Notes under the pieces: generated by a model
Seen by the model: only the letters and a program-made list of their open reading frames with translations
Database searches by the model: none
Told to the model about the DNA's origin: nothing
Shown: piece by piece, positions 3,005-58,890 of the stretch
Position numbering within the stretch: the first letter of the stretch is position 1
How the letters are laid out: every line of letters begins with the position of its first letter
Program-made: the position numbers and the translations under genes
Assembly (NCBI GenBank): GCA_963845565.1
Contig: CAWJSJ010000004.1
Location: 129,298-193,297, forward strand
DNA length: 64,000 bases
Origin: an uncultured Methylomirabilota bacterium
Lineage (GTDB): Bacteria > Methylomirabilota > Methylomirabilia > Methylomirabilales > 2-02-FULL-66-22
Reading direction: 5' to 3'

Positions 3005-4234
3005 ATGCCGGAATTCCCCACAATCCTCCCGCGAACAGAGGCGGGTCCGCCCGCCGGACCCGCCGATCTGGCGTTCGTGACCTCCACCCCCCTCACGGTT
3101 GCGGGGGGGAGCGGAACCTACGTGGGCATTCGTGAGTTGGCGCGATGCCTGGCGGACCGGCAGGTTCGCATCGCGACCTACGCGCCCGGTTTTTGGGCAC
3201 CCAGCTTTACCCTGAAGCGCCTGCTGTTCAACCTCCAGGTGGCGCCGCGCCTCCGGGCCGGACGGCACGACTGGGTGGTCGGTTTCGACTTGGACGGGTT
3301 TCACTACGGGCGCCGGCCCACCGCGCCCTACGTTGCCAGCATCAAGGGCGTGATTGCCGACGAACTCCGGAACGAACGGGGCCTCGTCCGCCGGATGCTG
3401 GCGATCCAAGCGGCGTTCGAGCGACTGGCCGTGCACCGTGCCGATGTGGTGGTCGCCACCAGCGCTTACTCTCGGGGTCGGATCGCGGAGGCCTATGGGG
3501 TTCCCATTGCCAAGGTGGTGGTGGTTCCGGAATTGATCGACCTCCGCGCCTGGGAGGCCACCGGGGAACCGGGGAGCGCGATGGAGGAGGATCCTCCGGC
3601 GGTCCTGACCGTGGCCCATCTGTACCCTCGGAAAAACGTCGGCGTCCTGCTCCGGGGCTACGCCCGGCTGCGCTCGGCCGGCGTGTCCTTCCAGGGCTGG
3701 ATCGTGGGGGACGGGCCGTGCCGGCGTGCGTGGGAGCGGCTGCGAGACGATCTTTCCTTGCAGGGCCGTGTCGAGTTCCTGGGAACCATCTCGCGCCGCG
3801 AGTTGGCGGATCGGTACCGCCGGGCCGCCGTCTTCTGTCTGCCGAGCCGGCAGGAGGGGTTCGGCATTGTTTTTCTGGAGGCCATGGCCCACGCGCGGCC
3901 AATCGTGGCGGCCCGGGCCGCTGCGGTCCCCGAGACGGTGACGGACGGCGAGGTCGGTATCCTGGCCGACCCCAACGATCCCGAGGAGTTTTCGCAGGCG
4001 CTGGCGACCCTGCTGGCGGATCGCGACCTGCGACGGCGCATGGGGCAGGCCGGCCGTCGGCGGGTGGAGTGCTATCGTTCCGATCGCGTGACGGCGCGAT
4101 TCCTGGAAACGGTCCGGGTCGCCCTGCGCGACCGGTCCGGGCCGGCGGTCCGACAGGATTCGGGTCCAGAGCGCGCCGGGGACCGCTCACTCGCCGTCGG
4201 CGAGGCCGGCAGGCGGAGGGAGGGTATGCAATGA
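3005..4234 (+). CDS. Glycosyltransferase family 4 (GT-B, group 1)
   Basis: 409 aa; EGFGIVFLEAMAHARPIVA...DGEVGIL (E-x7-E region) typical of GT4; stop overlaps next start (ATGA). Confidence 0.9.
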   Translation: MPEFPTILPRTEAGPPAGPADLAFVTSTPLTVAGGSGTYVGIRELARCLADRQVRIATYAPGFWAPSFTLKRLLFNLQVAPRLRAGRHDWVVGFDLDGFHYGRRPTAPYVASIKGVIADELRNERGLVRRMLAIQAAFERLAVHRADVVVATSAYSRGRIAEAYGVPIAKVVVVPELIDLRAWEATGEPGSAMEEDPPAVLTVAHLYPRKNVGVLLRGYARLRSAGVSFQGWIVGDGPCRRAWERLRDDLSLQGRVEFLGTISRRELADRYRRAAVFCLPSRQEGFGIVFLEAMAHARPIVAARAAAVPETVTDGEVGILADPNDPEEFSQALATLLADRDLRRRMGQAGRRRVECYRSDRVTARFLETVRVALRDRSGPAVRQDSGPERAGDRSLAVGEAGRRREGMQ

Positions 4235-4644
4235 TCCGCGTGACGAAGCGGGTGGAGTTCTGCGCCGCCCATCGCTACGTGAACCGGGCGTGGGACGACG
4301 CAGAGAACCGGCGGCGGTTCGGGAAGGCCGCGAACCTGCACGGCCATAACTACGTTCTGGAGGTCACGATCCAGGGGACGCCGTCCCCGGACACCGGCAT
4401 GGTGATGGACCTCAAAGCCCTGAAGGACCTCATCACCGAGGCGGTGCTGGATCGATTGGATCATAAGAATCTGAACGTGGACGTGGTCGCCTTTGCAGAG
4501 ACGCTGCCCACGCCGGAAAACCTGGCCGTCGTGATCTGGGACTGGCTCGCGGTTCGACTCGCGGACGCCGGCCTGTACCGTGTGCGCCTGCGGGAGGACG
4601 GCGGATCGTGCGTCGACTACTTCGGAGAGACGGGGCAGCCATGA
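4231..4644 (+). CDS. 6-pyruvoyl-tetrahydropterin synthase/QueD family protein (Ala in place of the catalytic Cys)
   Basis: MIRVTKRVEFCAAHRY...GKAANLHGHNYVLEVTIQG...DHKNLN; Zn-His motif present, QueD-like spacing but KAANLHGH instead of KCxxLHGH. Confidence 0.85.
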   Translation: MIRVTKRVEFCAAHRYVNRAWDDAENRRRFGKAANLHGHNYVLEVTIQGTPSPDTGMVMDLKALKDLITEAVLDRLDHKNLNVDVVAFAETLPTPENLAVVIWDWLAVRLADAGLYRVRLREDGGSCVDYFGETGQP

Positions 4645-5099
4645 GCGGCCCCGGGGCGATCGCCCGCGCGTCGCGGGTTCCGGTCGTGGAGGTGACCCAG
4701 GACTTTCGCTTCGCCGCGGCCCATCGGATGCACAACCCGCGCTTCTCGGCGGAGGAGAATCGGCGGCTCTACGGGCGATGCAATCACCCCAGCGGGCACG
4801 GCCACACCTACCGCCTGGCGGTGACCATCCGCGGGGCCATCTCACCGGAGACTGGCCGCCTCGACGACGGGGAGCGGCTGGCCGCCTTGGTGCAGGCGCG
4901 GGTGTTGGATCGCGTCGATCAGGCGGATCTCGACGGTCTGATCACACCGGCCGATGGGGTGACCAGCACCACGGAAGTCCTGGCCGGCGTGCTATGGCGG
5001 ATCCTGGAGGCGGCATTGCCGCCGGGGCGGCTGGTCCGGTTGCGCCTGGAGGAGACGCCGAACAATTTCTTTGAGCTGGATCGCGGCGACCGGCGATGA
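4641..5099 (+). CDS. 6-pyruvoyl-tetrahydropterin synthase (PTPS-I-like, catalytic Cys present)
   Basis: [10 protein letters not shown]...[13 protein letters not shown] matches the eukaryote-type GKCNNPNGHGHNY motif; ATGA overlap with upstream gene. Confidence 0.85.
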
Positions 5100-5157
5100 C
5101 CGACACCGCGGTCGATCGGAGGACTCCGACCCTCGGGGTCCGGAAAGCGAGCGGGAA

Positions 5158-5715
5158 ATGATCGAACCGTTGATTGTGGACCTGCTGAAGGAGTTGGGAG
5201 AGGACCCGCATCGCGAAGGCCTGCGCAGGACGCCGGAGCGCGTGGCGAGTGCCATGCACTACTTCACCTCCGGATATCACAAGACCGTGGAGGAGGTGCT
5301 GAACGAGGCGATCTTCACCGAACACTACGACGAAATGGTGGTGGTGAAGGATATCGAGATGTATTCGCTCTGCGAACACCACCTGCTACCCTTTTACGGG
5401 AAGGCGCACATCGCGTACCTCCCGGCCGGGAAGATCGTCGGTCTCAGCAAGCTGGCACGTCTGGTGGACATGTTTGCGCGTCGGCTCCAGGTCCAGGAGC
5501 GGCTCACCACGCAGATCGCTCAGGCCCTGCAGGACACCCTGCAACCGGCGGGGGTGGCGGTGGTCATCGAGGCCGTCCATTTCTGCATGATGATGCGCGG
5601 AGTGGAGAAACAGAACAGCAAGGCCATCACCTCCTGCATGCTGGGCGCCTTCCGGGATTCGCGCATGACCCGCGAGGAGTTCCTCCAGTTGATCCACAGC
5701 CACCGCACGCTGTGA
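5158..5715 (+). CDS. folE: GTP cyclohydrolase I
   Basis: [16 protein letters not shown]...[10 protein letters not shown]...[10 protein letters not shown]...HFCMMMRGV; ORF opens at TTG 5071 but ATG 5158 gives the usual ~185-aa length. Confidence 0.9.
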
Positions 5716-5891
5716 CACAATGACCAACAACCTACCCCGGACTCTTCACGAAGGATTCGTGAAGCGTCCGGGCCGGGCCAACCGCGCGGCACGTCGTGCC
5801 CGCCGCTCCGCCATCTCGGGGGCACGGCGGCGGGCACGGACCGACCCCTGGCTACGGCGAGGAGCGTCCGCGGGCGCGGAGTTTCAGCCGC

Positions 5892-8271
<2,380 letters not shown>

Positions 8272-8451
8272 TCCGCATTATTCACGATCACGATCGCGGT
8301 TTCTGCGAGTTCACTGGCCAACGGTGGTACGTGCGTTCAGCGCGCCGTCAGCGCCGCGAGCAGTCGGCCTTTTCTGCGTTGGTCAGTCCCGGGAGTGTTC
8401 GCGAAGGTGTTCGTGAATGATCTCGGCAACAGGTGGGCTCGGGGGCGGGAG

Positions 8452-9888: not shown

Positions 9889-10086
9889 ATGCCGGAGCAG
9901 GAGCGAAAGCAAAAGCGGACCGATGCCGCGCCGCCGTCTGGAGGCGGCCAGGGGTCGGCCACCGCCGCGACCAAGGGCAAAAAGCTCAAAGAGGACATGG
10001 ATCGGTTGGTCGATGAGATCGACGACGTGTTGGAGGAGAATGCCGAGGAGTTCGTGAAGAGTTACGTCCAGCGCGGTGGGGAATAA
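9889..10086 (+). CDS. pup: Prokaryotic ubiquitin-like protein Pup (C-terminal GGE)
   Basis: 65 aa, disordered Gly/Lys-rich N-terminus, DRLVDEIDDVLEENAEEFVKSYVQRGGE C-terminus; GGAGG RBS. Confidence 0.9.
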   Translation: MPEQERKQKRTDAAPPSGGGQGSATAATKGKKLKEDMDRLVDEIDDVLEENAEEFVKSYVQRGGE

Positions 10087-10123
10087 CGCCGGCCGACCCG
10101 ATCGATTGCCATGAGGAGCGTCC

Positions 10124-10324
10124 ATGCCGATCTACGAATTTGTTTGTGAGCAGTGTGCACACGCCTTCGAGAAGCGCGTCGCCTCCAGTCGGACGCGGGT
10201 CCGGTGCCCGCAGTGCGAGAGTGGGCGGGTGACCCGCCAGTTCTCCACCTTCGCCTTCAAGGGCGAACGCGGTTTTGTGGGATCGCACCGCGGAGGCTGT
10301 GCGGGCTGTTCCAGCGGCGGGTGA
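10124..10324 (+). CDS. FmdB-family zinc-ribbon protein
   Basis: MPIYEFVCEQC...RCPQCES...; Gly/Cys-rich tail GGCAGCSSGG. Confidence 0.8.
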   Translation: MPIYEFVCEQCAHAFEKRVASSRTRVRCPQCESGRVTRQFSTFAFKGERGFVGSHRGGCAGCSSGG

Positions 10325-10491: not shown

Positions 10492-10590
10492 AAAACTTGG
10501 ACGTCATTCCTGCGTGCGACGTGTTGCCAGGCCCTCCGCGGGCCGGTATCCGGGCGAACGCGGCGGGGGGTGGGTCGGAGGCGAACGATC

Positions 10591-12405
10591 ATGGGTGAAT
10601 CGGACACCAAGATGAACTCGCTGCGCAAGACGGTGCGGAGGCTCTCGGGGCAGGAGCCGCGATCGGAGGCCGGGAGTCCGCAACCCAGCGGCCAATACGA
10701 GACGGACAACGACAACCTTCAGGCGCAGGTCAAGGCGCTGGAAGAAGAGATGTTCCACCTGCGTCGGCGGCTGGAGCAGACGCCGCGGGAGTTCGAGTTC
10801 CTGCGCAACAAGCTGAGCCAGTCGCGGGAGCAGTTGGACCACGCGCAGGCGCAGAACGAGCGGCTGGCGGGTGTGCTCGGCCAAGCAAAGGATCAGATCG
10901 CGGCGCTCCGCGCCGAGGTGGATAAGCTGGCGGCTCCGCCGTCCAGTTACGGGACGATCCTCCAGGTCCATCCGGACGACACGGTGGACGTGTGGACCGG
11001 CGGGCGGAAGCTCAAGGTGAACGTCACTCCCAGCGTGGATCCGGCGGCGCTGCGCCGCGGCCGCGAGGTGGTGCTGAACGAGGCGCTGAACGTCGTGGAT
11101 CTGAGCGGCGGCGACCCGCAGGGCGAGATCGTCCGCCTGAAGGACCGCCTGGACGAGACGCGCGCCATGGTGACGCTGCGTGCCGACGAGGAGCGGGTGG
11201 TCGAACTGGCGGCCGACCTCGCCGCCGCCTTGCAGCCGGGGGACCTGCTGCGCCTGGACGCCAAAGCGGGGGTGGTCCTGGAGAAGCTCCCCAAGGCGGA
11301 GGTCGAGGATCTCGTCTTGGAAGAGGTCCCCAACATCACCTACACCGATATCGGCGGGTTGGCGGCGCAGATCGACCAGATCCGCGACGCCATCGAGCTG
11401 CCGGTCCTGTACGCCGACCACTTTGCGGTGCACAAGCTCTCGCCCCCCAAGGGGGTGCTGCTGTACGGGCCGCCGGGGTGCGGCAAGACGCTCATCGCCA
11501 AAGCGGTGGCCAATGCCTTGGCGCAGCAGCTCAGCCGCCAGACCGGCACGCCCAGCCGGGCGTACTTCCTCAACGTGAAGGGGCCCGAACTGCTCAACAA
11601 GTACGTGGGCGAAACAGAGCGGAAGCTCCGCGAGATCTTCGCCCGCGCTCGGGAGAAGGCCAGCGCCGGTGCCCCCGTGGTCATCTTCTTCGACGAGATG
11701 GATTCCCTCTTCCGGACGCGCGGATCGGGCATCTCCTCGGACGTGGAATCCACCATCGTCCCGCAGTTCTTGGCGGAGCTGGACGGCGTGGAGGGGCTCC
11801 GGCATGTGATCGTGATCGGCGCCAGCAACCGGCAGGACCTGATCGATCCGGCCGTCCTCCGGCCGGGCCGCTTCGACGTGAAGATCCGCATCGACCGCCC
11901 CAACCGGGAGGCGGCGCGCGAGATCTTCGCCAAGTACCTGACGACCGATCTGCCGTGGGCCGCCCCGGCGTTGGCAGCCCACGGGGACGACCCGGCGGCC
12001 ACGGCGGCCGCCCTGATCGAGGAGGCGCTGACGGAGATGTTTTCCGGCGACGACGCCCACCGTTTCCTGGAGGTCACCTATGCGTCCGGGGAGAAGGAGA
12101 CGCTCTACTTCAAGGACTTCGTGAGTGGGGCGATGATCGAGAGCGTCTGCACGCGGGCCAAGAAGACGGCGGTCAAGCGCATGATCACCACCGGCGTCAA
12201 GGGGATCGGTGCGGCGGATCTGACGGACGCGGTCAAGGCGGAGTTCCGGGAGAACGAGGATCTTCCCAACACCACCAACCCCGACGACTGGGCCAAGATT
12301 GCCGGCCGCCGCGGGGAACGCATCGTGCATGTCCGGCCGGTGTTCGACCGCGAAGCGAAGAAGCCCCGCAAGGTCGAGAACATCAGCACGGGCCACTATC
12401 TCTGA
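10591..12405 (+). CDS. mpa: Proteasome-associated AAA ATPase Mpa/ARC
   Basis: N-terminal coiled coil, OB region, Walker A GPPGCGKT, C-terminal GHYL (Mpa GQYL-type tail); ATG 10591 follows GGAGG (ORF opens at GTG 10570). Confidence 0.95.
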   Translation: MGESDTKMNSLRKTVRRLSGQEPRSEAGSPQPSGQYETDNDNLQAQVKALEEEMFHLRRRLEQTPREFEFLRNKLSQSREQLDHAQAQNERLAGVLGQAKDQIAALRAEVDKLAAPPSSYGTILQVHPDDTVDVWTGGRKLKVNVTPSVDPAALRRGREVVLNEALNVVDLSGGDPQGEIVRLKDRLDETRAMVTLRADEERVVELAADLAAALQPGDLLRLDAKAGVVLEKLPKAEVEDLVLEEVPNITYTDIGGLAAQIDQIRDAIELPVLYADHFAVHKLSPPKGVLLYGPPGCGKTLIAKAVANALAQQLSRQTGTPSRAYFLNVKGPELLNKYVGETERKLREIFARAREKASAGAPVVIFFDEMDSLFRTRGSGISSDVESTIVPQFLAELDGVEGLRHVIVIGASNRQDLIDPAVLRPGRFDVKIRIDRPNREAAREIFAKYLTTDLPWAAPALAAHGDDPAATAAALIEEALTEMFSGDDAHRFLEVTYASGEKETLYFKDFVSGAMIESVCTRAKKTAVKRMITTGVKGIGAADLTDAVKAEFRENEDLPNTTNPDDWAKIAGRRGERIVHVRPVFDREAKKPRKVENISTGHYL

Positions 12406-12513: not shown

Positions 12514-13998
12514 ATGGCGATCGAGAAGATCATGGGGAGCGAGACGGAGCTCGGCATCACTACCCACACCGCGTCCGGTTTCGATCCCGTGGGCGGCGCC
12601 ATCTTTCTGATCAACGCCGTGCCCGAGGAGGCGTCCTCGCGGGCGTTGTGGGACTACACGGGAGAGAACCCACTCCTGGACGCGCGGGGCTACGAGGCGA
12701 CCGGAGAACGCGAGCGGCCCACGGCCCAGGATAACCGTGCGCTCAACAAGGTGCTGGCGAACGGCGGGCGCCTCTACGTCGACGGCGCCCACCCCGAGTA
12801 CTCGACCCCCGAGACCAGCAACGCCCGGGATCTCGTGCTGTTCGAAAAAGCCGGGGAGCGGCTGGCCGACGCCTGCCGCGAGGCGGCCAACCGAACGCTT
12901 CCGCCGCACCAGCAGTTGGTGCTGTACAAGAACAACAGCGACGGCAAAGGGAACAGCTACGGCTATCATGAGAACTACCTGGTGGCCCGGAGCGTGCCCT
13001 TCGAGCGGTTGGTGGAGGCGTTGACCCCGTTCTTGGTTTCCCGCATCGTCGTGGCGGGTGCGGGCAAGGTGGGGGCCGAGAACGGCGCCGAGCCCTGCGC
13101 CTACCAGATCTCCCAGCGGGCCGATTTCTTCGAGACGCTGATCGGTTTGGATACCATGGCGAAGCGGCCGATCATCAACACCCGCGACGAGCCCCACGCC
13201 GACGAGGAGCGGTACCGCCGCCTCCACGTCATCGTGGGCGACTCCAACCTGGCCGAGGTGAGCACCTACCTCAAGGTCGGGACCACGGCCCTGGTGCTGG
13301 CCATGGTGGAGGACGGCGCCCTCCGGAAGGACCTCGCCCTGGAAGATCCGGTGCGGGCCATCAAGGAGATCTCCCACGACACCACCTGCACCCGGAAGGT
13401 CCGCCTGAAGCGGGGGACGGAGGTCTCGGCGGTCGAACTCCAGCGGGAGTACCTGGAGCTGGCGCAGGCCTACTACGCCACGGTCGAGCAGTCCCCCCAG
13501 GTCACCGACCTCCTGGAGCGCTGGGACCGGGTCCTGACCCAGCTCGCCGAGGACCCCCGCCAGTGCGCCCGGGAGCTGGACTGGGTCATCAAGCAGGCGC
13601 TCCTCGAGGCGTACACCAGCCGGAAGGGGATCGGGTTCGACGATCAGCGCGTCAGCATGCTGGATCTGCAGTACCACGATCTTCGCATGGACAAGGGGCT
13701 GTACTACCGGTTGGAGCGAGAGGGAATGGTGGAGCGGCTGCTCAGCGACGAGGAGATTGGCCGGGCCATGCACCTGCCCCCCACGGACACCCGGGCCTAT
13801 TTCCGGGGGACGTGCGTGCGGCGTTTCGGGGCGCAGGTGTGCGGCGCCAGCTGGACGTCCATCCTGCTGGACACCGGGGACGCCGCCGTGAAGCGCATCC
13901 CCATGGCGGAACCCGCGCGAGGGACGCGGAAACTGGTGGGCGAGATCCTGGAGCGCGCGGACAGCGTGAAGGATCTCCTGGAGCGACTGGCCGGGTAG
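12514..13998 (+). CDS. dop: Pup deamidase/depupylase Dop
   Basis: MAIEKIMGSETELGI..., carries the extra ~35-residue insertion (WDYTGENPLLDARGYEATGERERPTAQDNRALN) absent from the paralogue; 494 aa. Confidence 0.9.
   Translation: MAIEKIMGSETELGITTHTASGFDPVGGAIFLINAVPEEASSRALWDYTGENPLLDARGYEATGERERPTAQDNRALNKVLANGGRLYVDGAHPEYSTPETSNARDLVLFEKAGERLADACREAANRTLPPHQQLVLYKNNSDGKGNSYGYHENYLVARSVPFERLVEALTPFLVSRIVVAGAGKVGAENGAEPCAYQISQRADFFETLIGLDTMAKRPIINTRDEPHADEERYRRLHVIVGDSNLAEVSTYLKVGTTALVLAMVEDGALRKDLALEDPVRAIKEISHDTTCTRKVRLKRGTEVSAVELQREYLELAQAYYATVEQSPQVTDLLERWDRVLTQLAEDPRQCARELDWVIKQALLEAYTSRKGIGFDDQRVSMLDLQYHDLRMDKGLYYRLEREGMVERLLSDEEIGRAMHLPPTDTRAYFRGTCVRRFGAQVCGASWTSILLDTGDAAVKRIPMAEPARGTRKLVGEILERADSVKDLLERLAG
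13171..13679 (+). repeat. 509-bp block identical to 16278-16786 (inside dop)
   Basis: Line-by-line comparison shows no mismatch or indel at constant offset 3107. Confidence 0.9.
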
Positions 13999-14094
13999 GG
14001 ACAACAGGACAATCCGGCACGCCGGCAATTGGGCGACTTGGCGATCCGGAAATCAGGCGACAGGGCGGATGGTCCGTCCCGTCTCCTGGCGGCC

Positions 14095-14128
14095 GAATTG
14101 CGGAATTGTCAAATTGCGGCTAATCAAC
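14095..14128 (+). promoter_or_regulatory. AT-rich triple AATTG repeat upstream of prcB (possible operator/promoter)
   Basis: GAATTGCGGAATTGTCAAATTGCGGCTAATCAAC; AATTG at 14096, 14104 and 14112 (8-bp spacing), just before the prcB RBS. Confidence 0.3.
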
Positions 14129-14146
14129 GACGGAGGCGAGAGGCCT

Positions 14147-14944
14147 GTGGACGTCCATTTCAGTCGACATGACGCGGGATCCAGCTTTTTCGACTTGGTG
14201 CGGGAGCGTGAGCCGAATCTCCTGCCGCGGTTCGCGCCGGGGCGGGAGGGAGGCGAAGGAATGCCGGGGGTGCCGGTGGGCACGACCGTTCTGGCGCTGA
14301 AGTACCAGGCCGGCGTGGTGATCGCCGGCGACCGGCAGGCCACCGAGGGATACCAGGTGGCCTCGCGGCGGATCGAGAAAGTGTACGCTGCCGACGAGTA
14401 TTCCGCCGTCGCGATCGCCGGCGCGGCCGGGCCCTGTATCGAGATGGTCCGACTGTTCCAGACGGAGCTGGCCCATTACGAGAAGATCGAGGGGATGCAC
14501 CTGAGTCTGGAGGGAAAGGCCAACCGGCTGGCCCAGATGGTGCGCGCCAACCTCCCGCTGGCAATGCAGGGCCTACTGGTGGTGCCCATCTTCGCGGGCT
14601 ACGACCTGAAACGCAGCGAGGGGCGGATCTTCAAGTACGACGTCGCCGGGGGGCGTTACGAGGAAGCGGAATATTTCTCCATCGGCTCCGGCGGCAAGGA
14701 CGCCCGCTCCAGCTTGAAGAAGTTGTACCGGCCCGGCCTCGCCGAGGAGGAGGCCGTGCGCACGGCCCTGGAGGCGCTCTACGACGCCGCCGACGAGGAC
14801 CGCGGGACGGGCGGCCCCGATTTCGTGCGGGGCATCTTTCCGACCGTGAAGCTGGTCACGAGGGGCGGGGCGCTGGACGTTCCCGAGGATCGGGTGGCGA
14901 GCGCCTGCGCGGCGATCGCGGAGGCACGCAAGACGGCCGCCTGA
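14147..14944 (+). CDS. prcB: Proteasome beta subunit with propeptide
   Basis: Propeptide SSFFDLVREREPNLLP, processing site VG/TTVLALKY; GTG 14147 follows GGAGG (ORF opens at ATG 14069). Confidence 0.9.
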   Translation: MDVHFSRHDAGSSFFDLVREREPNLLPRFAPGREGGEGMPGVPVGTTVLALKYQAGVVIAGDRQATEGYQVASRRIEKVYAADEYSAVAIAGAAGPCIEMVRLFQTELAHYEKIEGMHLSLEGKANRLAQMVRANLPLAMQGLLVVPIFAGYDLKRSEGRIFKYDVAGGRYEEAEYFSIGSGGKDARSSLKKLYRPGLAEEEAVRTALEALYDAADEDRGTGGPDFVRGIFPTVKLVTRGGALDVPEDRVASACAAIAEARKTAA

Positions 14945-14999
14945 GTGGTGGGCGACCGATCGTCCCCATCACCGCCGGCCCATCGAGAAGGATGACATC

Positions 15000-15689
15000 A
15001 TGCCCTTACCGTATTACGTGTCGCCCGAGCAGATGATGCAGGATAAGGCGGAGTACGCCCGCAAGGGCATCGCCAAAGGCAAGTCCATCATCGCCCTGGA
15101 GTATGCCGGCGGTGTGCTGATCGTGGCCGAGAACCCCAGCGCGTCGCTCAACAAAGTCTCGGAGCTCTACGACCGGATCGCCTTCGCCGGGGCCGGCAAG
15201 TACGGCGAGTTCGAGCGACTGCGCAAGGAGGGGATCCGGTACGCGGACATGAAGGGCTACGCCTACGGGCGGGAGGACGTCACCGCCAAATCGCTCGCCA
15301 ACGCGTACTCCCAGGTGATCGGGAATATCTTCAGCATGGAGATCAAGCCGCTCGAGGCGGAGATCCTCGTCCTGGAAGTGGGCGAGGAGGCCGACGTGAA
15401 CGAGCTCTACCGGATCGCGTTCGACGGAAGCATCGCCGACGAGAAGGGCTACACCAGCATCGGGGGCCAGGCGGAGGAGCTGAAACTGTTCCTGAAGGAC
15501 AAGTTCGCCGAGGGGCTCGGCCTCGAGGCGGCCCTGCAGATGGCCACGCGCGCCCTGGAGGCGGCGGCCAGCCAGAAGGTGAAGGCCGCGACCCTGGAGG
15601 TTGCGGTCCTGGATCGGGCCCGGCTGGGGCGAAAGTTTCGACGGCTGCCCCAGGCGGAGTTGCGGGCCATGGTCGAGGCGGGCGGCTAG
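15000..15689 (+). CDS. prcA: Proteasome alpha subunit
   Basis: MPLPYYVSPEQMMQDKAEYARKGIAKGKS...; 229 aa. Confidence 0.9.
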   Translation: MPLPYYVSPEQMMQDKAEYARKGIAKGKSIIALEYAGGVLIVAENPSASLNKVSELYDRIAFAGAGKYGEFERLRKEGIRYADMKGYAYGREDVTAKSLANAYSQVIGNIFSMEIKPLEAEILVLEVGEEADVNELYRIAFDGSIADEKGYTSIGGQAEELKLFLKDKFAEGLGLEAALQMATRALEAAASQKVKAATLEVAVLDRARLGRKFRRLPQAELRAMVEAGG

Positions 15690-15710
15690 GCGCCGCGCCG
15701 TGTGACCGCC

Positions 15711-17069
15711 ATGCAGCGGCGGATCTTTGGCCTGGAAACCGAATACGGCCTGATCTCCTCCTCCACCGGGGGGACCATGAGCCTCTCGGTCGAGAGCGCG
15801 CTGGGCTACCTTTTCGAAAAGGTGGTGTCGCGGCAGCGCGGCACCAACGACTTTCTGCGCAACGGGGCGCGGCTGTATCAGGACACCGGGTGCCACCCCG
15901 AGTATGCGACCCCCGAGTGCGACAATCCTCTGGAACTCACCCTGCACGACAAGGCCGGCGAGCGGATCGTCGAGGAGTTGCTGCTCACCGCGGAGCAGCG
16001 ACTGCGCGACGGCGGGATTGCCTGCGACATCTTCGTCTTCAAGAACAACACCGATTCCGTCGGGAACACGTACGGCTGTCACGAGAACTACCTGGTGGAG
16101 CGCACGGTCAACTTCCACAAGCTGGCCGAACTGCTCATCCCCTTCTTCGTGACCCGGCAGGTGTTCGCCGGTGCCGGGAAGGTGTTGAAGACCCGCCTGG
16201 GGAATCATTATTATATCTCCCAGCGGGCGCAGCATATTTACCAGGAGATTTCGGGGGCCACCACCAGCTCGCGGGGTATCATCAACACCCGCGACGAGCC
16301 CCACGCCGACGAGGAGCGGTACCGCCGCCTCCACGTCATCGTGGGCGACTCCAACCTGGCCGAGGTGAGCACCTACCTCAAGGTCGGGACCACGGCCCTG
16401 GTGCTGGCCATGGTGGAGGACGGCGCCCTCCGGAAGGACCTCGCCCTGGAAGATCCGGTGCGGGCCATCAAGGAGATCTCCCACGACACCACCTGCACCC
16501 GGAAGGTCCGCCTGAAGCGGGGGACGGAGGTCTCGGCGGTCGAACTCCAGCGGGAGTACCTGGAGCTGGCGCAGGCCTACTACGCCACGGTCGAGCAGTC
16601 CCCCCAGGTCACCGACCTCCTGGAGCGCTGGGACCGGGTCCTGACCCAGCTCGCCGAGGACCCCCGCCAGTGCGCCCGGGAGCTGGACTGGGTCATCAAG
16701 CAGGCGCTCCTCGAGGCGTACACCAGCCGGAAGGGGATCGGGTTCGACGATCAGCGCGTCAGCATGCTGGATCTGCAGTACCACGACGTGCGGCGCGATC
16801 GCGGGTTCTACTCCATGCTCTGCCGCGCGGGAAAGGTGGACCGGCTTTTCGACGATGCGACGATCGAGCGGGCCATGACGATCCCACCCCAGACCACGCG
16901 GGCCAAGGTCCGGTCGGACTTCATCAACTTTGCCACCGAACGGAACAAGTCCTACGATGTGGGCTGGTCGTATCTGAAGCTGAACGATCGGTACCAGCGG
17001 ACCATCCTCTGCAAGGATCCGTTCAAGCCGTTCGATCCGCGCGTGGAAGAGTTGATCAACTCGGCTTGA
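15711..17069 (+). CDS. pafA: Pup-protein ligase PafA
   Basis: MQRRIFGLETEYGL..., lacks the Dop insertion; C-terminus DPFKPFDPRVEELI. Confidence 0.9.
   Translation: MQRRIFGLETEYGLISSSTGGTMSLSVESALGYLFEKVVSRQRGTNDFLRNGARLYQDTGCHPEYATPECDNPLELTLHDKAGERIVEELLLTAEQRLRDGGIACDIFVFKNNTDSVGNTYGCHENYLVERTVNFHKLAELLIPFFVTRQVFAGAGKVLKTRLGNHYYISQRAQHIYQEISGATTSSRGIINTRDEPHADEERYRRLHVIVGDSNLAEVSTYLKVGTTALVLAMVEDGALRKDLALEDPVRAIKEISHDTTCTRKVRLKRGTEVSAVELQREYLELAQAYYATVEQSPQVTDLLERWDRVLTQLAEDPRQCARELDWVIKQALLEAYTSRKGIGFDDQRVSMLDLQYHDVRRDRGFYSMLCRAGKVDRLFDDATIERAMTIPPQTTRAKVRSDFINFATERNKSYDVGWSYLKLNDRYQRTILCKDPFKPFDPRVEELINSA
16278..16786 (+). repeat. 509-bp block identical to 13171-13679 (inside pafA)
   Basis: See partner copy. 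Confidence 0.9.
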
Positions 17070-41720: not shown

Positions 41721-41792
41721 CAGACGAGCCACGAGCCTAGAGCCACGAGCGGCGACCGGAGGGCCGAGAGCGTAGCGGGACGCGGAAGAATT
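41716..41792. repeat. Heptanucleotide-periodic tandem array (11 units)
   Basis: CGTGACA GACGAGC CACGAGC CTAGAGC CACGAGC GGCGACC GGAGGGC CGAGAGC GTAGCGG GACGCGG AAGAATT; shares CCGAGAGCGTAG and GACCGGAGGG with the 18.9-kb array. Confidence 0.75.
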
Positions 41793-41800
41793 CACGTCTC

Positions 41801-41950
41801 CTCAGGCTGCTCAAAACGGTCCAGATGCAAGGCGGAAGGCGCAAGGCGGGTCCCGGCCGCAGGCTGGGTCCAGGCGTACTCCAGGTACGCCGCAACGAGT
41901 GCCTCAGCCTTTCAACGCCGCAGATGGGCCGTTTTCAGCAGCCTGTTAGA
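41801..41950. repeat. ~150-bp palindromic, hairpin-rich dispersed element, copy 2
   Basis: Same termini (CTCAGGCTGCTCAAAA...GCAGATGGGCC.TTTT..GCAGCCTGTTAG); internal hairpins CCCGGCC-GCA-GGCTGGG and GGCGTAC-TCCAG-GTACGCC. Confidence 0.8.
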
Positions 41951-47095: not shown

Positions 47096-47122
47096 TGTCC
47101 GATCTCCGTGGGCAATGGTTTT

Positions 47123-47157
47123 CTGCCAGCTGTCACCTGCCCGCTGCCAGCTGGCTT
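47123..47157. repeat. 35-bp CTGCCAG heptad module
   Basis: CTGCCAG CTGTCAC CTGCCCG CTGCCAG CTGGCTT, ending 5 nt before the tmRNA 5' end. Confidence 0.75.
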
Positions 47158-47162
47158 TTCAA

Positions 47163-47512
47163 GGGGGTGCAACGGTTTCGACGGGGGCAAGGGGGTACAG
47201 GTGGCATGCCGAGTCCCCACCGGCTCGTAAAAGGTGGGAAAAACACAACTGCCAATAACGAATTGGCCCTCGCTGCCTAACTAGCAGCGACGTCCCCCTT
47301 GCCCCGCTTGCCGGGTGAGATCGGGGCGTCATAAAGGCAAGCTAGGCTAGCCGATCCCGGCCCGGGGTCGGCCGGATGAAAACCAATGGGCTGGTCGTCG
47401 GGAGCCCTGCCGGCGGGGTTACCTGGCGACGAGAAAAAAACGCCGGCTACGCATGTAGAAGCCTGTACTGACAGGTTCTCGGACGGGGGTTCGACTCCCC
47501 CCACCTCCACCA
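47163..47512 (+). ncRNA. ssrA: tmRNA (SsrA), tag ANNELALAA
   Basis: 5' GGGGGTGCAACGGTTTCGACGGGGG pairs with 3' ...CACCTCCACCA (G3:U pair); tag ORF GCC AAT AAC GAA TTG GCC CTC GCT GCC TAA at 47251-47280; T-arm GGGGGTTCGACTCCCCC. Confidence 0.95.
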
Positions 47513-52404: not shown

Positions 52405-52511
52405 GCAGATGCTGGCGACGTGAAGCCGGCCATCCAGCGGCTCACCGCCTTTCTCGCCGCTCCCGAGGTGGCGGCAGCGACCGACCCTGAGATCCGGGCC
52501 ACCCGGCGGCG
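52405..52511 (+). repeat. Diverged duplicate of the vWA gene 3' end (matches 56722-56828)
   Basis: ADAGDVKPAIQRLTAFLAAPEVAAATDPEIRATRRR vs ADAGDVKEAIQRLTAFLAAPEVAAATDPEIQAARRR; 107 nt, no indel, about 11 mismatches by eye. Confidence 0.8.
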
Positions 52512-55403: not shown

Positions 55404-55615
55404 CAATCTGCAATCTGCATTCGACAATCCGCAATTCCCATTGTGACCCCACATGTCACACATGTATGGCATCCTCGTCGCGTCGGCGCTTGAACTTGAT
55501 TGCCGATTGCCGATTGATGATTGCCGATTGCTGAACAAAGCGTAAGGCGCTGAGCGCTTAGCGCCAGAGGATTCCGTTCTCTGCCGGCTGCCAACTGCCC
55601 GCTGCCAGCTGGCCC
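55404..55615. repeat. ~210 bp of uninterrupted 7-bp phase (about 30 heptads)
   Basis: CAATCTG CAATCTG CATTCGA CAATCCG CAATTCC ... GCCGATT GCCGATT GATGATT GCCGATT GCTGAAC ... CTGCCGG CTGCCAA CTGCCCG CTGCCAG CTGGCCC. Confidence 0.75.
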
Positions 55616-55632
55616 TGGAAGGGAGGCTTCTT

Positions 55633-56946
55633 ATGTCGGAACCCGCATCGCCAAATCGCCAAATTGCCCAGTTGCCGCACGCCGTCCTGATGCGTCTGGA
55701 CATCATCCCCGAACGCCCGTGCCTGCCGGTCGGCGAGGTCACCTCCCTTCCCGTCCTCATCCGCCTCACCGCGCCCACCGTTCCCCAGATGGCCCGGAAG
55801 CCCCTCAACCTCTGTCTCGTGATCGATCGGAGTGGCTCGATGGCAGACGAGAAGCTCCGCCACACCATCGCCTCGGCCAAGTTCGTGGTCGAGCGACTGG
55901 CGGCCACCGACCTCCTTTCGGTGGTCCAGTTCGACGAGCGGGTGAAAGTCGTCATCCCGCCGGGACCCGTGACCGATCGGGCGCACCTCTGCCGTCGCCT
56001 GGACGGCATCCACGCCGGCGGGCAGACGAACCTCTCGGGCGGCTGGCTGCGTGGCGCGGCCTGTGTCCGGGAGCGGCAGGCGCCCGATTACATCAACCGG
56101 GTCATCCTGCTCACCGACGGCCAGGCCAATCACGGGATCACCGATCCGGCTGTCCTGGTGAAGCATGCGGCGGAATTGACCGAAGAGGGAATCACCACAA
56201 CGACGATAGGTTACGGCGAAGACTTCAACGAAGATCTCCTGACGGCATTGGCCGATGCCGGCCGGGGAAACGCCTACCACGTCGAGACCGCGGACCAGGC
56301 GCCGACCATCTTCGCGCGGGAATTGGAAGGACTCCTGGCGATCGCCGCCCAGAACGTCCGGGTGACGTTCACCCCGAGCGGTCTCGTCCGGCGGGTGGAC
56401 CTCTGTTCAACCATGGAGCACCACCGGGACGGGAGGACCCTCACCGTCACCGTGGGCGATCTCGTCAGCGAGGACACCCGGTCCCTGCTTCTCATCCTCC
56501 GGACCGATCCCGGGAAGAAGGAGGGGTGGGCGGATCTGGGGACGGTCACCGTCACGTACGACGACGTGGTCGGGGGGATTTGTTCCAGGACCCTCACCCA
56601 CGAGGTCGTCGTCGGAGCGATCGCCCCCGCGAAAGTCGCCGCCATCCCGCCGGATGCCGCGGTGGGCAAAGAACTGCTCATCCTCCGTGCCGCGAAAGTC
56701 CTCCAGGCTGCCATCACCGAGGCAGATGCTGGCGACGTGAAGGAGGCCATCCAGCGGCTCACCGCCTTCCTCGCCGCTCCCGAGGTTGCGGCAGCCACCG
56801 ATCCCGAGATCCAGGCCGCCCGCCGGCGACTCAAGGAGATGCTCCACGATCTCCAGGATCGGGGGTTCGACAAGATGTCCCGGAAGCACATGGTCTATTC
56901 CAGTCGCGAGTGGACCCAGGGCAGGTCGAAGGGAGGGGCTGACTAG
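55633..56946 (+). CDS. von Willebrand factor A (vWA) domain protein
   Basis: MIDAS DRSGSM, ...GGQTNLSGG..., LLTDGQAN; intact 437 aa with a helical C-terminal region. Confidence 0.85.
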   Translation: MSEPASPNRQIAQLPHAVLMRLDIIPERPCLPVGEVTSLPVLIRLTAPTVPQMARKPLNLCLVIDRSGSMADEKLRHTIASAKFVVERLAATDLLSVVQFDERVKVVIPPGPVTDRAHLCRRLDGIHAGGQTNLSGGWLRGAACVRERQAPDYINRVILLTDGQANHGITDPAVLVKHAAELTEEGITTTTIGYGEDFNEDLLTALADAGRGNAYHVETADQAPTIFARELEGLLAIAAQNVRVTFTPSGLVRRVDLCSTMEHHRDGRTLTVTVGDLVSEDTRSLLLILRTDPGKKEGWADLGTVTVTYDDVVGGICSRTLTHEVVVGAIAPAKVAAIPPDAAVGKELLILRAAKVLQAAITEADAGDVKEAIQRLTAFLAAPEVAAATDPEIQAARRRLKEMLHDLQDRGFDKMSRKHMVYSSREWTQGRSKGGAD

Positions 56947-58268: not shown

Positions 58269-58339
58269 CTGCCTTCTGCCCGCTGGTAGCTGTACTTCAG
58301 TCCCCTGCCAGCTGCCATCTGCCCGCTGCTAGCTGGTCG
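58269..58339. repeat. Two adjacent CTGCCAG heptad modules
   Basis: CTGCCTT CTGCCCG CTGGTAG CTGTACT ... CTGCCAG CTGCCAT CTGCCCG CTGCTAG CTGGTCG, ending 5 nt before ATG 58345. Confidence 0.75.
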
Positions 58340-58344
58340 AAACG

Positions 58345-58669
58345 ATGAGCGGTCGAACCGGATCGGCCGGACGGAGGAACGGCAGGGACGGATCGAGGTG
58401 TACGACACGCAATCCAACCGCATCGGCGAGGGGGTGCGGCAACCGGACGGCAGCATCGACTTTCGGGACCCGCAGGGGAATCGGATTGGACGCACCGGCC
58501 CGCCGAGCACCGACGGCTCGGTGCGGTTTGACGATGCGCGTCCAACCGCGTCGGGCAGGGCAGGCCCGACACCACGGGGCGCTATCAGTACGAGGACCGG
58601 GGATCCACCCGGCGCGGCAGCGGCGACGCCTCGGGCCCCGTGTGGCTCCAGCGCGGCTCGCGGAAGTAG
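58345..58669 (+). pseudogene. Small tandem-repeat protein (SNR[IV]G repeats); start and frame unresolved
   Basis: ERSNRIGRTEERQGRIEVYD TQSNRIGEGVRQPDGSIDFRD PQGNRIGRTGPPSTDGSVRFDDA then (other frame) SNRVGQGRPDTTGRYQYEDRGSTRRGSGDASGPVWLQRGSRK*. Confidence 0.35.
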
Positions 58670-58738
58670 GCCGATGTTTCCGACTGCGCACGGAGGCGGG
58701 ACGGCGGCATTGGGGCGTTCTTTCCGCGTCCCAGCCCA

Positions 58739-58766
58739 CTGCCACCTGCTTCCTGCCAGCTGGTTT
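58739..58766. repeat. CTGCCAG heptad module
   Basis: CTGCCAC CTGCTTC CTGCCAG CTGGTTT. Confidence 0.6.
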
Positions 58767-58890
58767 CCATGGTGCCCAACGCCAGACACGTGCACGCGGG
58801 TCGGGCTACGCCCTTGCACCGTGCAGAGGTGTCTGTTATACATCCCACCGGGCTTTCGCCCGTCCTTGGAAGCTTGGAGCTCGACGGCCG

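Follow-up and report, generated by a model that had tools for sequence, protein, structure and literature searches.

Introduction

The ligase PafA, which attaches Pup as a tag for degradation, and the depupylase Dop, which takes it off, are homologous enzymes with opposing activities, and the canonical pairs are actinobacterial, from Mycobacterium tuberculosis, M. smegmatis, Corynebacterium glutamicum and Acidothermus (structures 4B0R, 4B0T, 4BJR and 5LRT). In a published phylogeny Dop and PafA form cleanly separated clades, with NC10 bacteria represented only by sporadic draft genomes (PMC7947786). The same study turned Dop of M. smegmatis into a ligase by 20 changes, located in Dop 27-104 (with the Dop-loop deleted), in the alpha-loop at 209-221 and at Ser450 (PMC7947786). 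The alpha-loop has been defined as the element F208-K220 of Acidothermus Dop (Acel Dop; PMC8599861, also PMC7947786). Here we analyze a dop-pafA pair in a 64-kb stretch of contig CAWJSJ010000004.1 (64,000 nucleotides, hereafter the window), in which the middle third of the two genes is identical base for base.

The window pair resembles its actinobacterial counterparts in several respects. It belongs to the same two families (TIGR03688 for Dop, TIGR03686 for PafA), a Dop-loop is present in Dop and not in PafA, the alpha-loops of the two enzymes are distinct, and the genes are clustered with arc, pup, prcB and prcA. It differs in two others. In the actinobacterial pair (32 loci) the region of the shared block has only 42-51% protein identity and no long nucleotide match, and pup lies between dop and prcB, whereas in the clade of the window it lies upstream of arc. 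We propose, with a probability of about 0.88, that recurrent gene conversion homogenizes the central ~510 nt of dop and pafA throughout this clade, while the ends of the two genes are kept distinct.

Results

A block shared by dop and pafA

The genes and elements on which the argument turns are the following.

12514..13998, + strand: dop (depupylase), 494 aa, TIGR03688 at 570 bits
13126..13164, + strand: Dop-type alpha-loop FFETLIGLDTMAK, aligned with Acel Dop F208-K220; the last function-discriminating element ahead of the block
13171..13679, + strand: shared block, dop copy; Dop residues 220-388 plus 2 nt of codon 389 (IINTRDEPHAD...MLDLQYH); 509/509 to 16278-16786
15711..17069, + strand: pafA (Pup ligase), 452 aa, TIGR03686 at 575 bits; the identical protein P0121 is found on other contigs
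16233..16271, + strand: PafA-type alpha-loop HIYQEISGATTSS, counterpart of M. smegmatis PafA 174-186 in a by-eye alignment
16278..16786, + strand: shared block, pafA copy; PafA residues 190-358 plus 2 nt of codon 359; 509/509 to 13171-13679

Exact pairwise comparison of the two copies found 509 of 509 bases identical at a constant offset of 3107 with no indel, just as the first-pass annotation of the window had described, together with abrupt edges and a shared reading frame. Both copies lie in frame 0 of their own open reading frames (ORFs; 12514-13998 and 15711-17069), and the two genes are in direct orientation, 3.1 kb apart. The 509 nt are the maximal exact run, the bases that flank it on either side being mismatched. 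In 60-nt windows at the same offset, identity between the genes was 0.23-0.45 upstream of the block; downstream it was 0.58-0.62 over ~120 nt and then ~0.3. The proteins outside the block share 41% identity in the N segment and 31% in the C segment, so the earlier description of the flanks as ordinary diverged paralogues was accurate. The block is the sole long repeat of the 64-kb window and corresponds to ~170 residues, which is 37% of PafA and 34% of Dop. Judging by the divergence of the flanks, 509 matches in a row between such paralogues cannot be put down to chance.

The block in related genomes

The same block, with the same boundaries, recurs in related Methylomirabilota (NC10-type): at least nine more assemblies, independent of that of the window, have dop and pafA 95-100% identical across it. 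These assemblies came from differing samples and pipelines (ENA 'contig_N' type, SPAdes NODE, JGI). The left edge common to the relatives is the first base of ATCATCAACACC (IINTRDEPHAD), and the right edge is CAGTACCAYGA (LQYHD). Agreement between the dop and pafA copies of the block was as follows.

L002 (704-kb ENA contig, 99.46% identical to the window over 13 kb): 509/509
L001 (ENA): 1 mismatch
L084 (5.6-Mb contig): exact over 523 nt, extending 13 nt further at the right edge
L086 (JGI, 65 kb): exact over 510 nt
L085 (221 kb): 1 synonymous mismatch
L087 (JGI): 24 mismatches (95.3%)
L097 (JGI): 1 mismatch
L173 (SPAdes, 83 kb): 5 mismatches, confined to the 3' third

The PafA encoded by L173 is named by NCBI as that of Candidatus (Ca.) Methylomirabilis limnetica, and the homologues and loci closest to the window in the databases are labelled Methylomirabilota, NC10 or Ca. 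Methylomirabilis. At the protein level, four genomes besides that of the window, each with a Dop/PafA pair on one contig, have 170-174 consecutive identical residues in the two proteins. At more distant loci the identity between the copies was ~83-84% (L088), 74% (L089) and 70-80% (L090). In protein searches, Dop and PafA orthologues resembled the window block equally, while the N and C segments resembled their own orthologue only. From a scan of metagenomes came just one new locus in which both genes are intact (L097), along with L102, a looping contig described below. A scan of GTDB genomes gave, among the matches listed, nearly all outgroups and two short Methylomirabilota contigs, and it served as a negative control.

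Outside the lineage we compared 58 loci, comprising 21 from Nitrospirota, 32 from Actinomycetota, and others from metagenome-assembled genomes (MAGs) labelled Rokubacteria and Myxococcota. There, dop and pafA share only short matches of 72-90% near conserved motifs, and protein identity between Dop and PafA across the block is 42-64%. No long nucleotide match between dop and pafA was found in the Actinomycetota and Nitrospirota loci. The block identity of the Actinomycetota (42-51%) is not above that of their N segment; unlike them, the Nitrospirota have a higher identity in the block (46-64%) than in the N segment (35-46%).

Two irregular loci were seen along the way. In L001, 98.2% identical to the window, the 5' part of dop contains a frameshift (~2803-2935), which leaves a gene call of 450 aa; an indel error from long-read assembly is a more probable cause than a pseudogene. 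In L079, an Egibacteraceae MAG, a 125-nt dop fragment covering the alpha-loop and NTRDEPHAD region (5748-5872) has a second copy at 7574-7696, 1.8 kb downstream, with 96.8% identity and two single-base indels, and has the appearance of a pseudogene remnant.

Concerted evolution of the block

Between genomes of the clade the block is 74-88% identical (12-26% nucleotide difference), as against 95-100% within genomes. In neighbor-joining trees of the N and C segments, a Dop clade stood apart from a PafA clade, while in the tree of the block the Dop and PafA of each genome were sisters. The identity matrix, the three segment trees and the per-segment identities (calculated in 65 loci) placed, within the clade, paralogues closer than orthologues in the block and the reverse in the flanks. 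This pattern, with a block that groups by genome between flanks that group by gene, is that of concerted evolution.

We calculated synonymous (dS) and non-synonymous (dN) divergence by the Nei-Gojobori method. Within genomes, block dS was 0 in the window, L084 and L086, 0.01 in L085, 0.17 in L087, 0.27 in L088 and 0.82 in L089. Between genomes it was 0.35-0.65, and in the flanks dS was 0.55-1.4. Synonymous sites are thus homogenized along with the rest, and protein-level selection is therefore not the explanation of the block identity. The dN/dS ratio was 0.40 or less in all segments, and we therefore conclude that both dop and pafA are under purifying selection.

Differences between closely related strains also tended to appear in both copies. 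At block position 153 the window has C in dop and pafA alike, where L002, L001 and L003 have T in both genes. L002 alone has T in both genes at position 289, and at position 222 a single copy stands out, that of pafA in L001. In base composition, the GC content of third codon positions (GC3) in the window is 0.97 in the block versus 0.85-0.89 in the flanks. Across the seven clade loci the excess over the flanks ranged from +0.05 to +0.16, compared with +0.014 +/- 0.024 (maximum 0.081) in the 58 other loci. The raised GC3 is suggestive of GC-biased gene conversion.

In L088 (282-5030) the copies have drifted to ~84%, with a high non-synonymous share (dN 0.154, dS 0.27). This may represent rapid protein divergence after conversion ceases, as seen in one genome only.

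Identity of the two genes

The window Dop scored 570.2 bits against TIGR03688 (NCBIfam), passing the cut-off of 492.3, while the PafA model gave 416 bits on the same protein. Its alignment with Acidothermus Dop (4B0R/5LRT; E 1e-151) spans the full length, Dop-loop included. This loop, ~40 residues before strand beta2, occupies residues ~35-80 of the window Dop (…RALWDYTGENPLLDARGYE…), includes W47 of Acel Dop, and is missing from the window PafA ORF. The alpha-loop FFETLIGLDTMAK retains the F, E, G, L and K of Acel F208, E210, G214, L215 and K220, and the motif LYVDGAHPEY contains the catalytic Asp and not the one-residue insertion of PafA. That dop is a working gene, with a predicted depupylase activity, is suggested by its intact ORF and by dN/dS values of 0.13-0.30 across the Dop-specific segments.

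The window PafA passed the cut-off of TIGR03686 (NCBIfam; 575.3 bits, cut-off 551.3) and matched C. glutamicum PafA (4B0T) across residues 2-450. In by-eye alignments its alpha-loop HIYQEISGATTSS carries the expected His, Ser, Ala-Thr-Thr and Ser, and its motif LYQDTGCHPEY has the extra residue after the Asp (compare D57-V58-G59-S60 of the M. smegmatis enzyme, Msm). In the PafA-specific segments dN/dS is 0.04-0.24. The predicted activity is that of a ligase.

Two further features of these proteins were noticed. Gly91 of Dop (12781-12783), beside the catalytic Asp, replaces a His that is maximally conserved in actinobacteria (Acel H95, position 11 of PMC7947786); it is invariant across an 18-sequence Dop alignment, and PafA likewise has Gly there. 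Against sequences in the PDB, the window PafA (15711-17066) scored higher with Acidothermus Dop (363.5 bits) than with C. glutamicum PafA (344.7 bits) because of the shared block, which could thus mislead a best-hit annotation of PafA.

Position of the block and reaction specificity

The block starts two codons after the alpha-loop in Dop and two residues after HIYQEISGATTSS in PafA, where the loop was placed by eye, counting from the arginine of NTRDEP (Msm R193). In the alignment to 4B0R/5LRT, the start of the Dop block is the equivalent of Acidothermus Dop I223, at the start of strand beta7. An AlphaFold2 model of PafA, for which 25 close homologues were used, is poor (mean predicted local distance difference test score, pLDDT, 43); in it the block is mainly helical. 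Residues linked to roles that the two enzymes have in common fall inside the block: H231 of Acel Dop belongs to the nucleotide pocket (PMC8599861), and R207 and R218 of C. glutamicum PafA contact substrates (PMC10465538). The residues of the Pup-binding groove are not listed in PMC8599861, PMC12053664, PMC10465538 or PMC3511204, and we make no claim about the groove for the block.

All 20 Dop-to-ligase substitutions of PMC7947786 map outside the block, while ten positions (34-43) that the same study calls 'uniquely conserved' fall within it. The block of ~170 residues is the same in a ligase and in the opposing hydrolase, and the direction of the reaction is therefore decided outside it. The residues that decide direction must sit in the N-terminal ~190-220 and the C-terminal ~95-105 residues, and the ten 'uniquely conserved' block positions would be dispensable for specificity. 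Four of these (positions 35, 37, 38 and 42 of PMC7947786) do separate Dop from PafA in Actinomycetota. In Nitrospirota and in the window clade, PafA has the Dop-type V37 and Q42, and Dop has the PafA-type I38. From these residues, and from the block identity of Nitrospirota that exceeds their N-segment identity, it might be argued, less firmly, that exchange in the block segment had taken place by the time of the ancestor of the non-actinobacterial clusters and continued only in Methylomirabilota.

Hybrid reading frames and looping contigs

The two protein searches produced 234 clusters: 66 of Dop, 101 of PafA, 48 in which the N-terminal part of Dop and the block are joined to the C-terminal part of PafA (481-482 aa), and 19 in which the N-terminal part of PafA and the block are joined to the C-terminal part of Dop (464 aa). 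Hybrids (67/234 clusters) were found in every sublineage, and their halves are often 100% identical to the intact Dop and PafA of the same populations. Both forms are mostly on short contigs. The 464-aa form is not obtainable by simple deletion, and for this reason, together with the short contigs, we read most hybrids as assembler mis-joins across the repeat, with some possibly being real deletion or duplication variants. NCBI gives the name 'depupylase/deamidase Dop' to four of the 482-aa hybrids (P0092, P0095, P0103 and P0107).

Two JGI metagenome contigs repeat themselves. In L003, 1-1438 equals 3108-4545 (100%), and in L102, 1-3391 equals 3108-6498 (99.88%). Both contigs pass more than once through a cycle of the dop C-terminal part, prcB, prcA, the pafA N-terminal part and the block, with a period of 3107, and thereby yield the 464-aa ORFs. 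Either the assembler looped through the repeat in these contigs, or the tandem duplications are real. Two longer contigs have the other arrangement. L091 (37.8 kb, NCBI MAG GCA_040960995) and L092 (20.4 kb, JGI) carry arc, then a 482-aa hybrid with the Dop N-terminal part, block and PafA C-terminal part (7001-8449), then the genes usually downstream of pafA, with no prcB-prcA. Their layout is the exact product to be expected of a deletion between the repeats, or else an assembler shortcut. The first-pass annotation had held that the repeat would make the prcB-prcA interval prone to deletion or duplication. Public contigs do contain exactly such junctions, but they are indistinguishable from assembler mis-joins.

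Whichever their origin, hybrids could contaminate family alignments and the gene inventories of MAGs. A repeat that makes assemblers skip or loop prcB-prcA also means that calls of proteasome presence or absence in Methylomirabilota MAGs may be wrong.

The surrounding gene cluster

The remaining genes of the cluster in the window are listed here; the Pfam matches were made with the equivalents in L002.

9889..10086, + strand: pup, ORF of 65 aa ending ...QRGGE (C-terminus GGE); PF05639 (Pup) at the matching place in L002
10124..10324, + strand: small Zn-ribbon protein between pup and arc, ORF; PF09723 (Zn_ribbon_8) in the L002 equivalent
10591..12405, + strand: arc/mpa-type proteasomal AAA ATPase, 604 aa from ATG; the ORF opens with GTG at 10570
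14069..14944, + strand: prcB (proteasome beta subunit), ORF; PF00227 in the L002 equivalent
15000..15689, + strand: prcA (proteasome alpha subunit), 229 aa, ORF; PF00227 in the L002 equivalent

The gene order in L002 (99.5% identical to the window) is pup, Zn-ribbon, arc/mpa, dop, prcB, prcA, pafA and ferritin, and its arc/mpa ATPase has Prot_ATP_ID_OB_N/C and AAA domains. The start of prcB is uncertain, 14069 being that of the longest ORF, while the call in L002 corresponds to 14261. Pup ends in GGE, and a deamidation step is therefore unneeded.

In the window clade pup is upstream of arc, beside the Zn-ribbon gene (9889-10324 in the window). The outgroups L089 (7522-7719) and L090 (7526-7723), which are without the homogenized block, have a 65-aa gene between dop and prcB, an Actinobacteria-like arrangement; this gene matched Pfam Pup in L089, and no Pfam match was recorded for it in L090. 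For L086, L087 and L173, neither the dop-prcB interval nor the retrieved part of the upstream flank showed a pup gene.

Other repeats and RNA in the window

A tmRNA gene lies at 47163-47512 (Rfam RF00023, 202 bits). One member of a 48-nt repeat family rich in CTGCCAGCTG (47118-47165) abuts its 5' end, and more diverged copies (63-83%) occur 8-11 kb downstream at 55576-55623, 58300-58347 and 58727-58774. There are also two direct repeat pairs, one of 107 nt with 91% identity (52405-52511 and 56722-56828) and one of 63 nt with 78% identity (1723-1785 and 41773-41835).

Discussion

Mechanism

We envisage dop and pafA as old, functionally diverged paralogues whose central ~510 nt (~170 codons) would evolve in concert in Methylomirabilota of the NC10 type. 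Non-reciprocal homologous recombination, presumably by RecA-type machinery acting on direct repeats 3.1 kb apart, would copy the block between the genes far more often than point mutations build up. Two limits may set the edges: the flanks would be too diverged for strand exchange, and selection would purge tracts that overwrite the parts determining ligase or hydrolase activity. The parts protected in this way would be the N-terminal ~190-220 residues, with the neighborhood of the catalytic Asp, the Dop-loop and the alpha-loop, and the C-terminal ~95-105 residues. The homogenized core would consist of strand beta7 with the nucleotide/phosphate-binding motif NTRDEPHAD, followed by the mainly helical second half of the large N-terminal domain, and this core evidently serves both enzymes equally well.

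Some loci bear on the size and direction of the tracts. The 13-nt rightward extension in L084 gives its Dop a PafA-like DIRRD, and the edges can therefore shift slightly and PafA can act as a donor. In L173 the 5' two-thirds of the block, and in L087 a stretch of 107 nt, are exact, while the remainder has drifted, which suggests that conversion tracts are often shorter than the block.

Several points weigh against this proposal or limit how far it can be taken. The 509/509 agreement was read from an assembly consensus, and the true identity could be a base or two lower. Placing the window in the clade depends on the labels of its nearest database proteins and loci, and the activity of both enzymes is a prediction from sequences that are metagenomic throughout. 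Stronger codon selection in the block could be an alternative cause of its raised GC3. The relative weights of selection and homology at the edges are something we infer; homology limits alone could account for the constant boundaries, leaving the selective part presumptive. The original donor, moreover, cannot be named. Segment-specific trees had been recommended as a way to identify it, and they did separate the flanks by gene and the block by genome, but they do not assign a donor. The block alone scores similarly with the two NCBIfam models (Dop 209 versus PafA 199 bits), its mean identity to the Dop and PafA blocks of outgroups is equal (51-55% each), and the diagnostic positions of PMC7947786 within it form a mosaic of PafA-type V34, S35 and I38 with Dop-type V37, L40 and Q42.

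Alternative explanations

Homogenization may itself be advantageous, as a way for ligase and depupylase to stay fitted to one set of partners (Pup, nucleotide and shared substrates). In favor of this, the block has persisted over a deep clade with fixed boundaries, and it holds the nucleotide- and substrate-touching residues H231 (Acel Dop; PMC8599861) and R207/R218 (C. glutamicum PafA; PMC10465538). However, the copies have drifted in L087 (95%), L088 (~84%) and L089 (74%) with both genes intact, Actinomycetota and Nitrospirota do without a homogenized block, and neutral conversion bounded by homology fits the data equally well. We consider such an advantage unlikely. We are just as doubtful that the core is a shared functional module through which conversion co-adapts both enzymes, and that some hybrids of the L091/L092 type are real single-enzyme, proteasome-less pupylation systems. 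If that were true, such systems would arise recurrently by deletion between the repeats.

The first-pass annotation had favored a very recent gene conversion as one explanation of the identity. Conversion between direct repeats stands, and 0 differences in 509 nt indicate that the last conversion in this lineage was recent. That it was a single event confined to this strain is less probable still than the readings above, as genomes whose Dop is only 68-80% identical to that of the window show the same identical block with the same edges, and the block tree groups by genome throughout the clade.

The annotation had also raised the possibility of a chimeric or collapsed consensus, in which one paralogue overwrote the other during assembly or polishing or a collapsed repeat was misresolved. 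The locus is indeed hard for assemblers, public data hold many hybrid ORFs and contigs that loop through it (L003, L102), and polishing with multi-mapped reads can wipe out a few true differences. An artefact, though, would need to have arisen anew, each time at the same two codons, in the nine or more other assemblies, which came from varied samples and pipelines. Several of those assemblies keep 1-24 differences between the copies, so that identity is not forced. An artefact would also have to produce a block that differs by 12-26% between genomes yet matches within each, and strain single-nucleotide polymorphisms (SNPs) that are present in both copies. We regard an artefact as very improbable; at most, the last mismatch or two may have been erased.

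Least probable of all is a single swap of the domain in ancient times, at the base of the clade, after which strong purifying selection and codon bias would have held the copies alike with no further conversion: the block does have highly conserved motifs (NTRDEPHAD, DLQYHD) and an extreme GC3 (0.95-0.99) that restricts synonymous change, but a swap predicts divergence within genomes at least equal to that between them, against an observed dS of 0-0.01 versus 0.35-0.65, and it leaves the SNPs that mark near-identical strains in both copies unaccounted for.

Two other ideas were rejected. A mobile element or insertion was set aside, the block being the conserved fold core in all homologues, and convergence by selection is contradicted by the dS pattern.

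Comparison with known systems

In full-text literature searches we found no report that dop and pafA undergo gene conversion or evolve in concert, nor any study of pupylation in Methylomirabilis. The one paper with both 'gene conversion' and 'depupylase', a genome study of M. tuberculosis Erdman, appears unrelated. Segment-restricted conversion of dop and pafA thus appears to be unreported, while the mechanism, conversion bounded by selection and homology, is of a familiar kind.

Concerted evolution of bacterial paralogues by RecA-dependent gene conversion is established for tufA and tufB of Salmonella and E. coli and for rRNA operons. As in those systems, recombination here would be intrachromosomal and non-reciprocal, and the copies are near-identical within a genome and diverge between species. 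The tuf and rRNA copies are, in contrast, redundant and homogenized over nearly their whole length, whereas in dop and pafA only the middle third is affected and the products have opposing activities.

Segmental conversion between diverged tandem paralogues, with selection preserving the specificity sites, is found in the red and green opsins of primates and in RHD/RHCE. These share with dop and pafA a mosaic in which converted segments group by genome or species and function-determining segments group by gene, as well as GC-biased signatures. They are eukaryotic and meiotic, however, and their tracts are usually patchy and short-lived, while the present case is bacterial and consists of one fixed block whose sharp edges are conserved across deep divergence. 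It offers a clean bacterial example of lasting, segment-restricted concerted evolution between opposed paralogues, with an edge two codons from a specificity element and a signature in GC3, and should help in studying what part selection and homology play in delimiting conversion tracts.

The closest counterpart within the family is the engineered enzyme Dop2PafA-alpha (Hecht et al. 2020, PMC7947786). That work was laboratory mutagenesis of one actinobacterial enzyme, while here a natural 170-residue core is present in both genes. The direction-setting residues found by engineering lie outside the natural block, and the natural chimeras agree with this independently. As a natural domain-swap, the dop-pafA pair of the window clade is thus in agreement with the 20-substitution conversion of Dop to a ligase (PMC7947786), and extends it.

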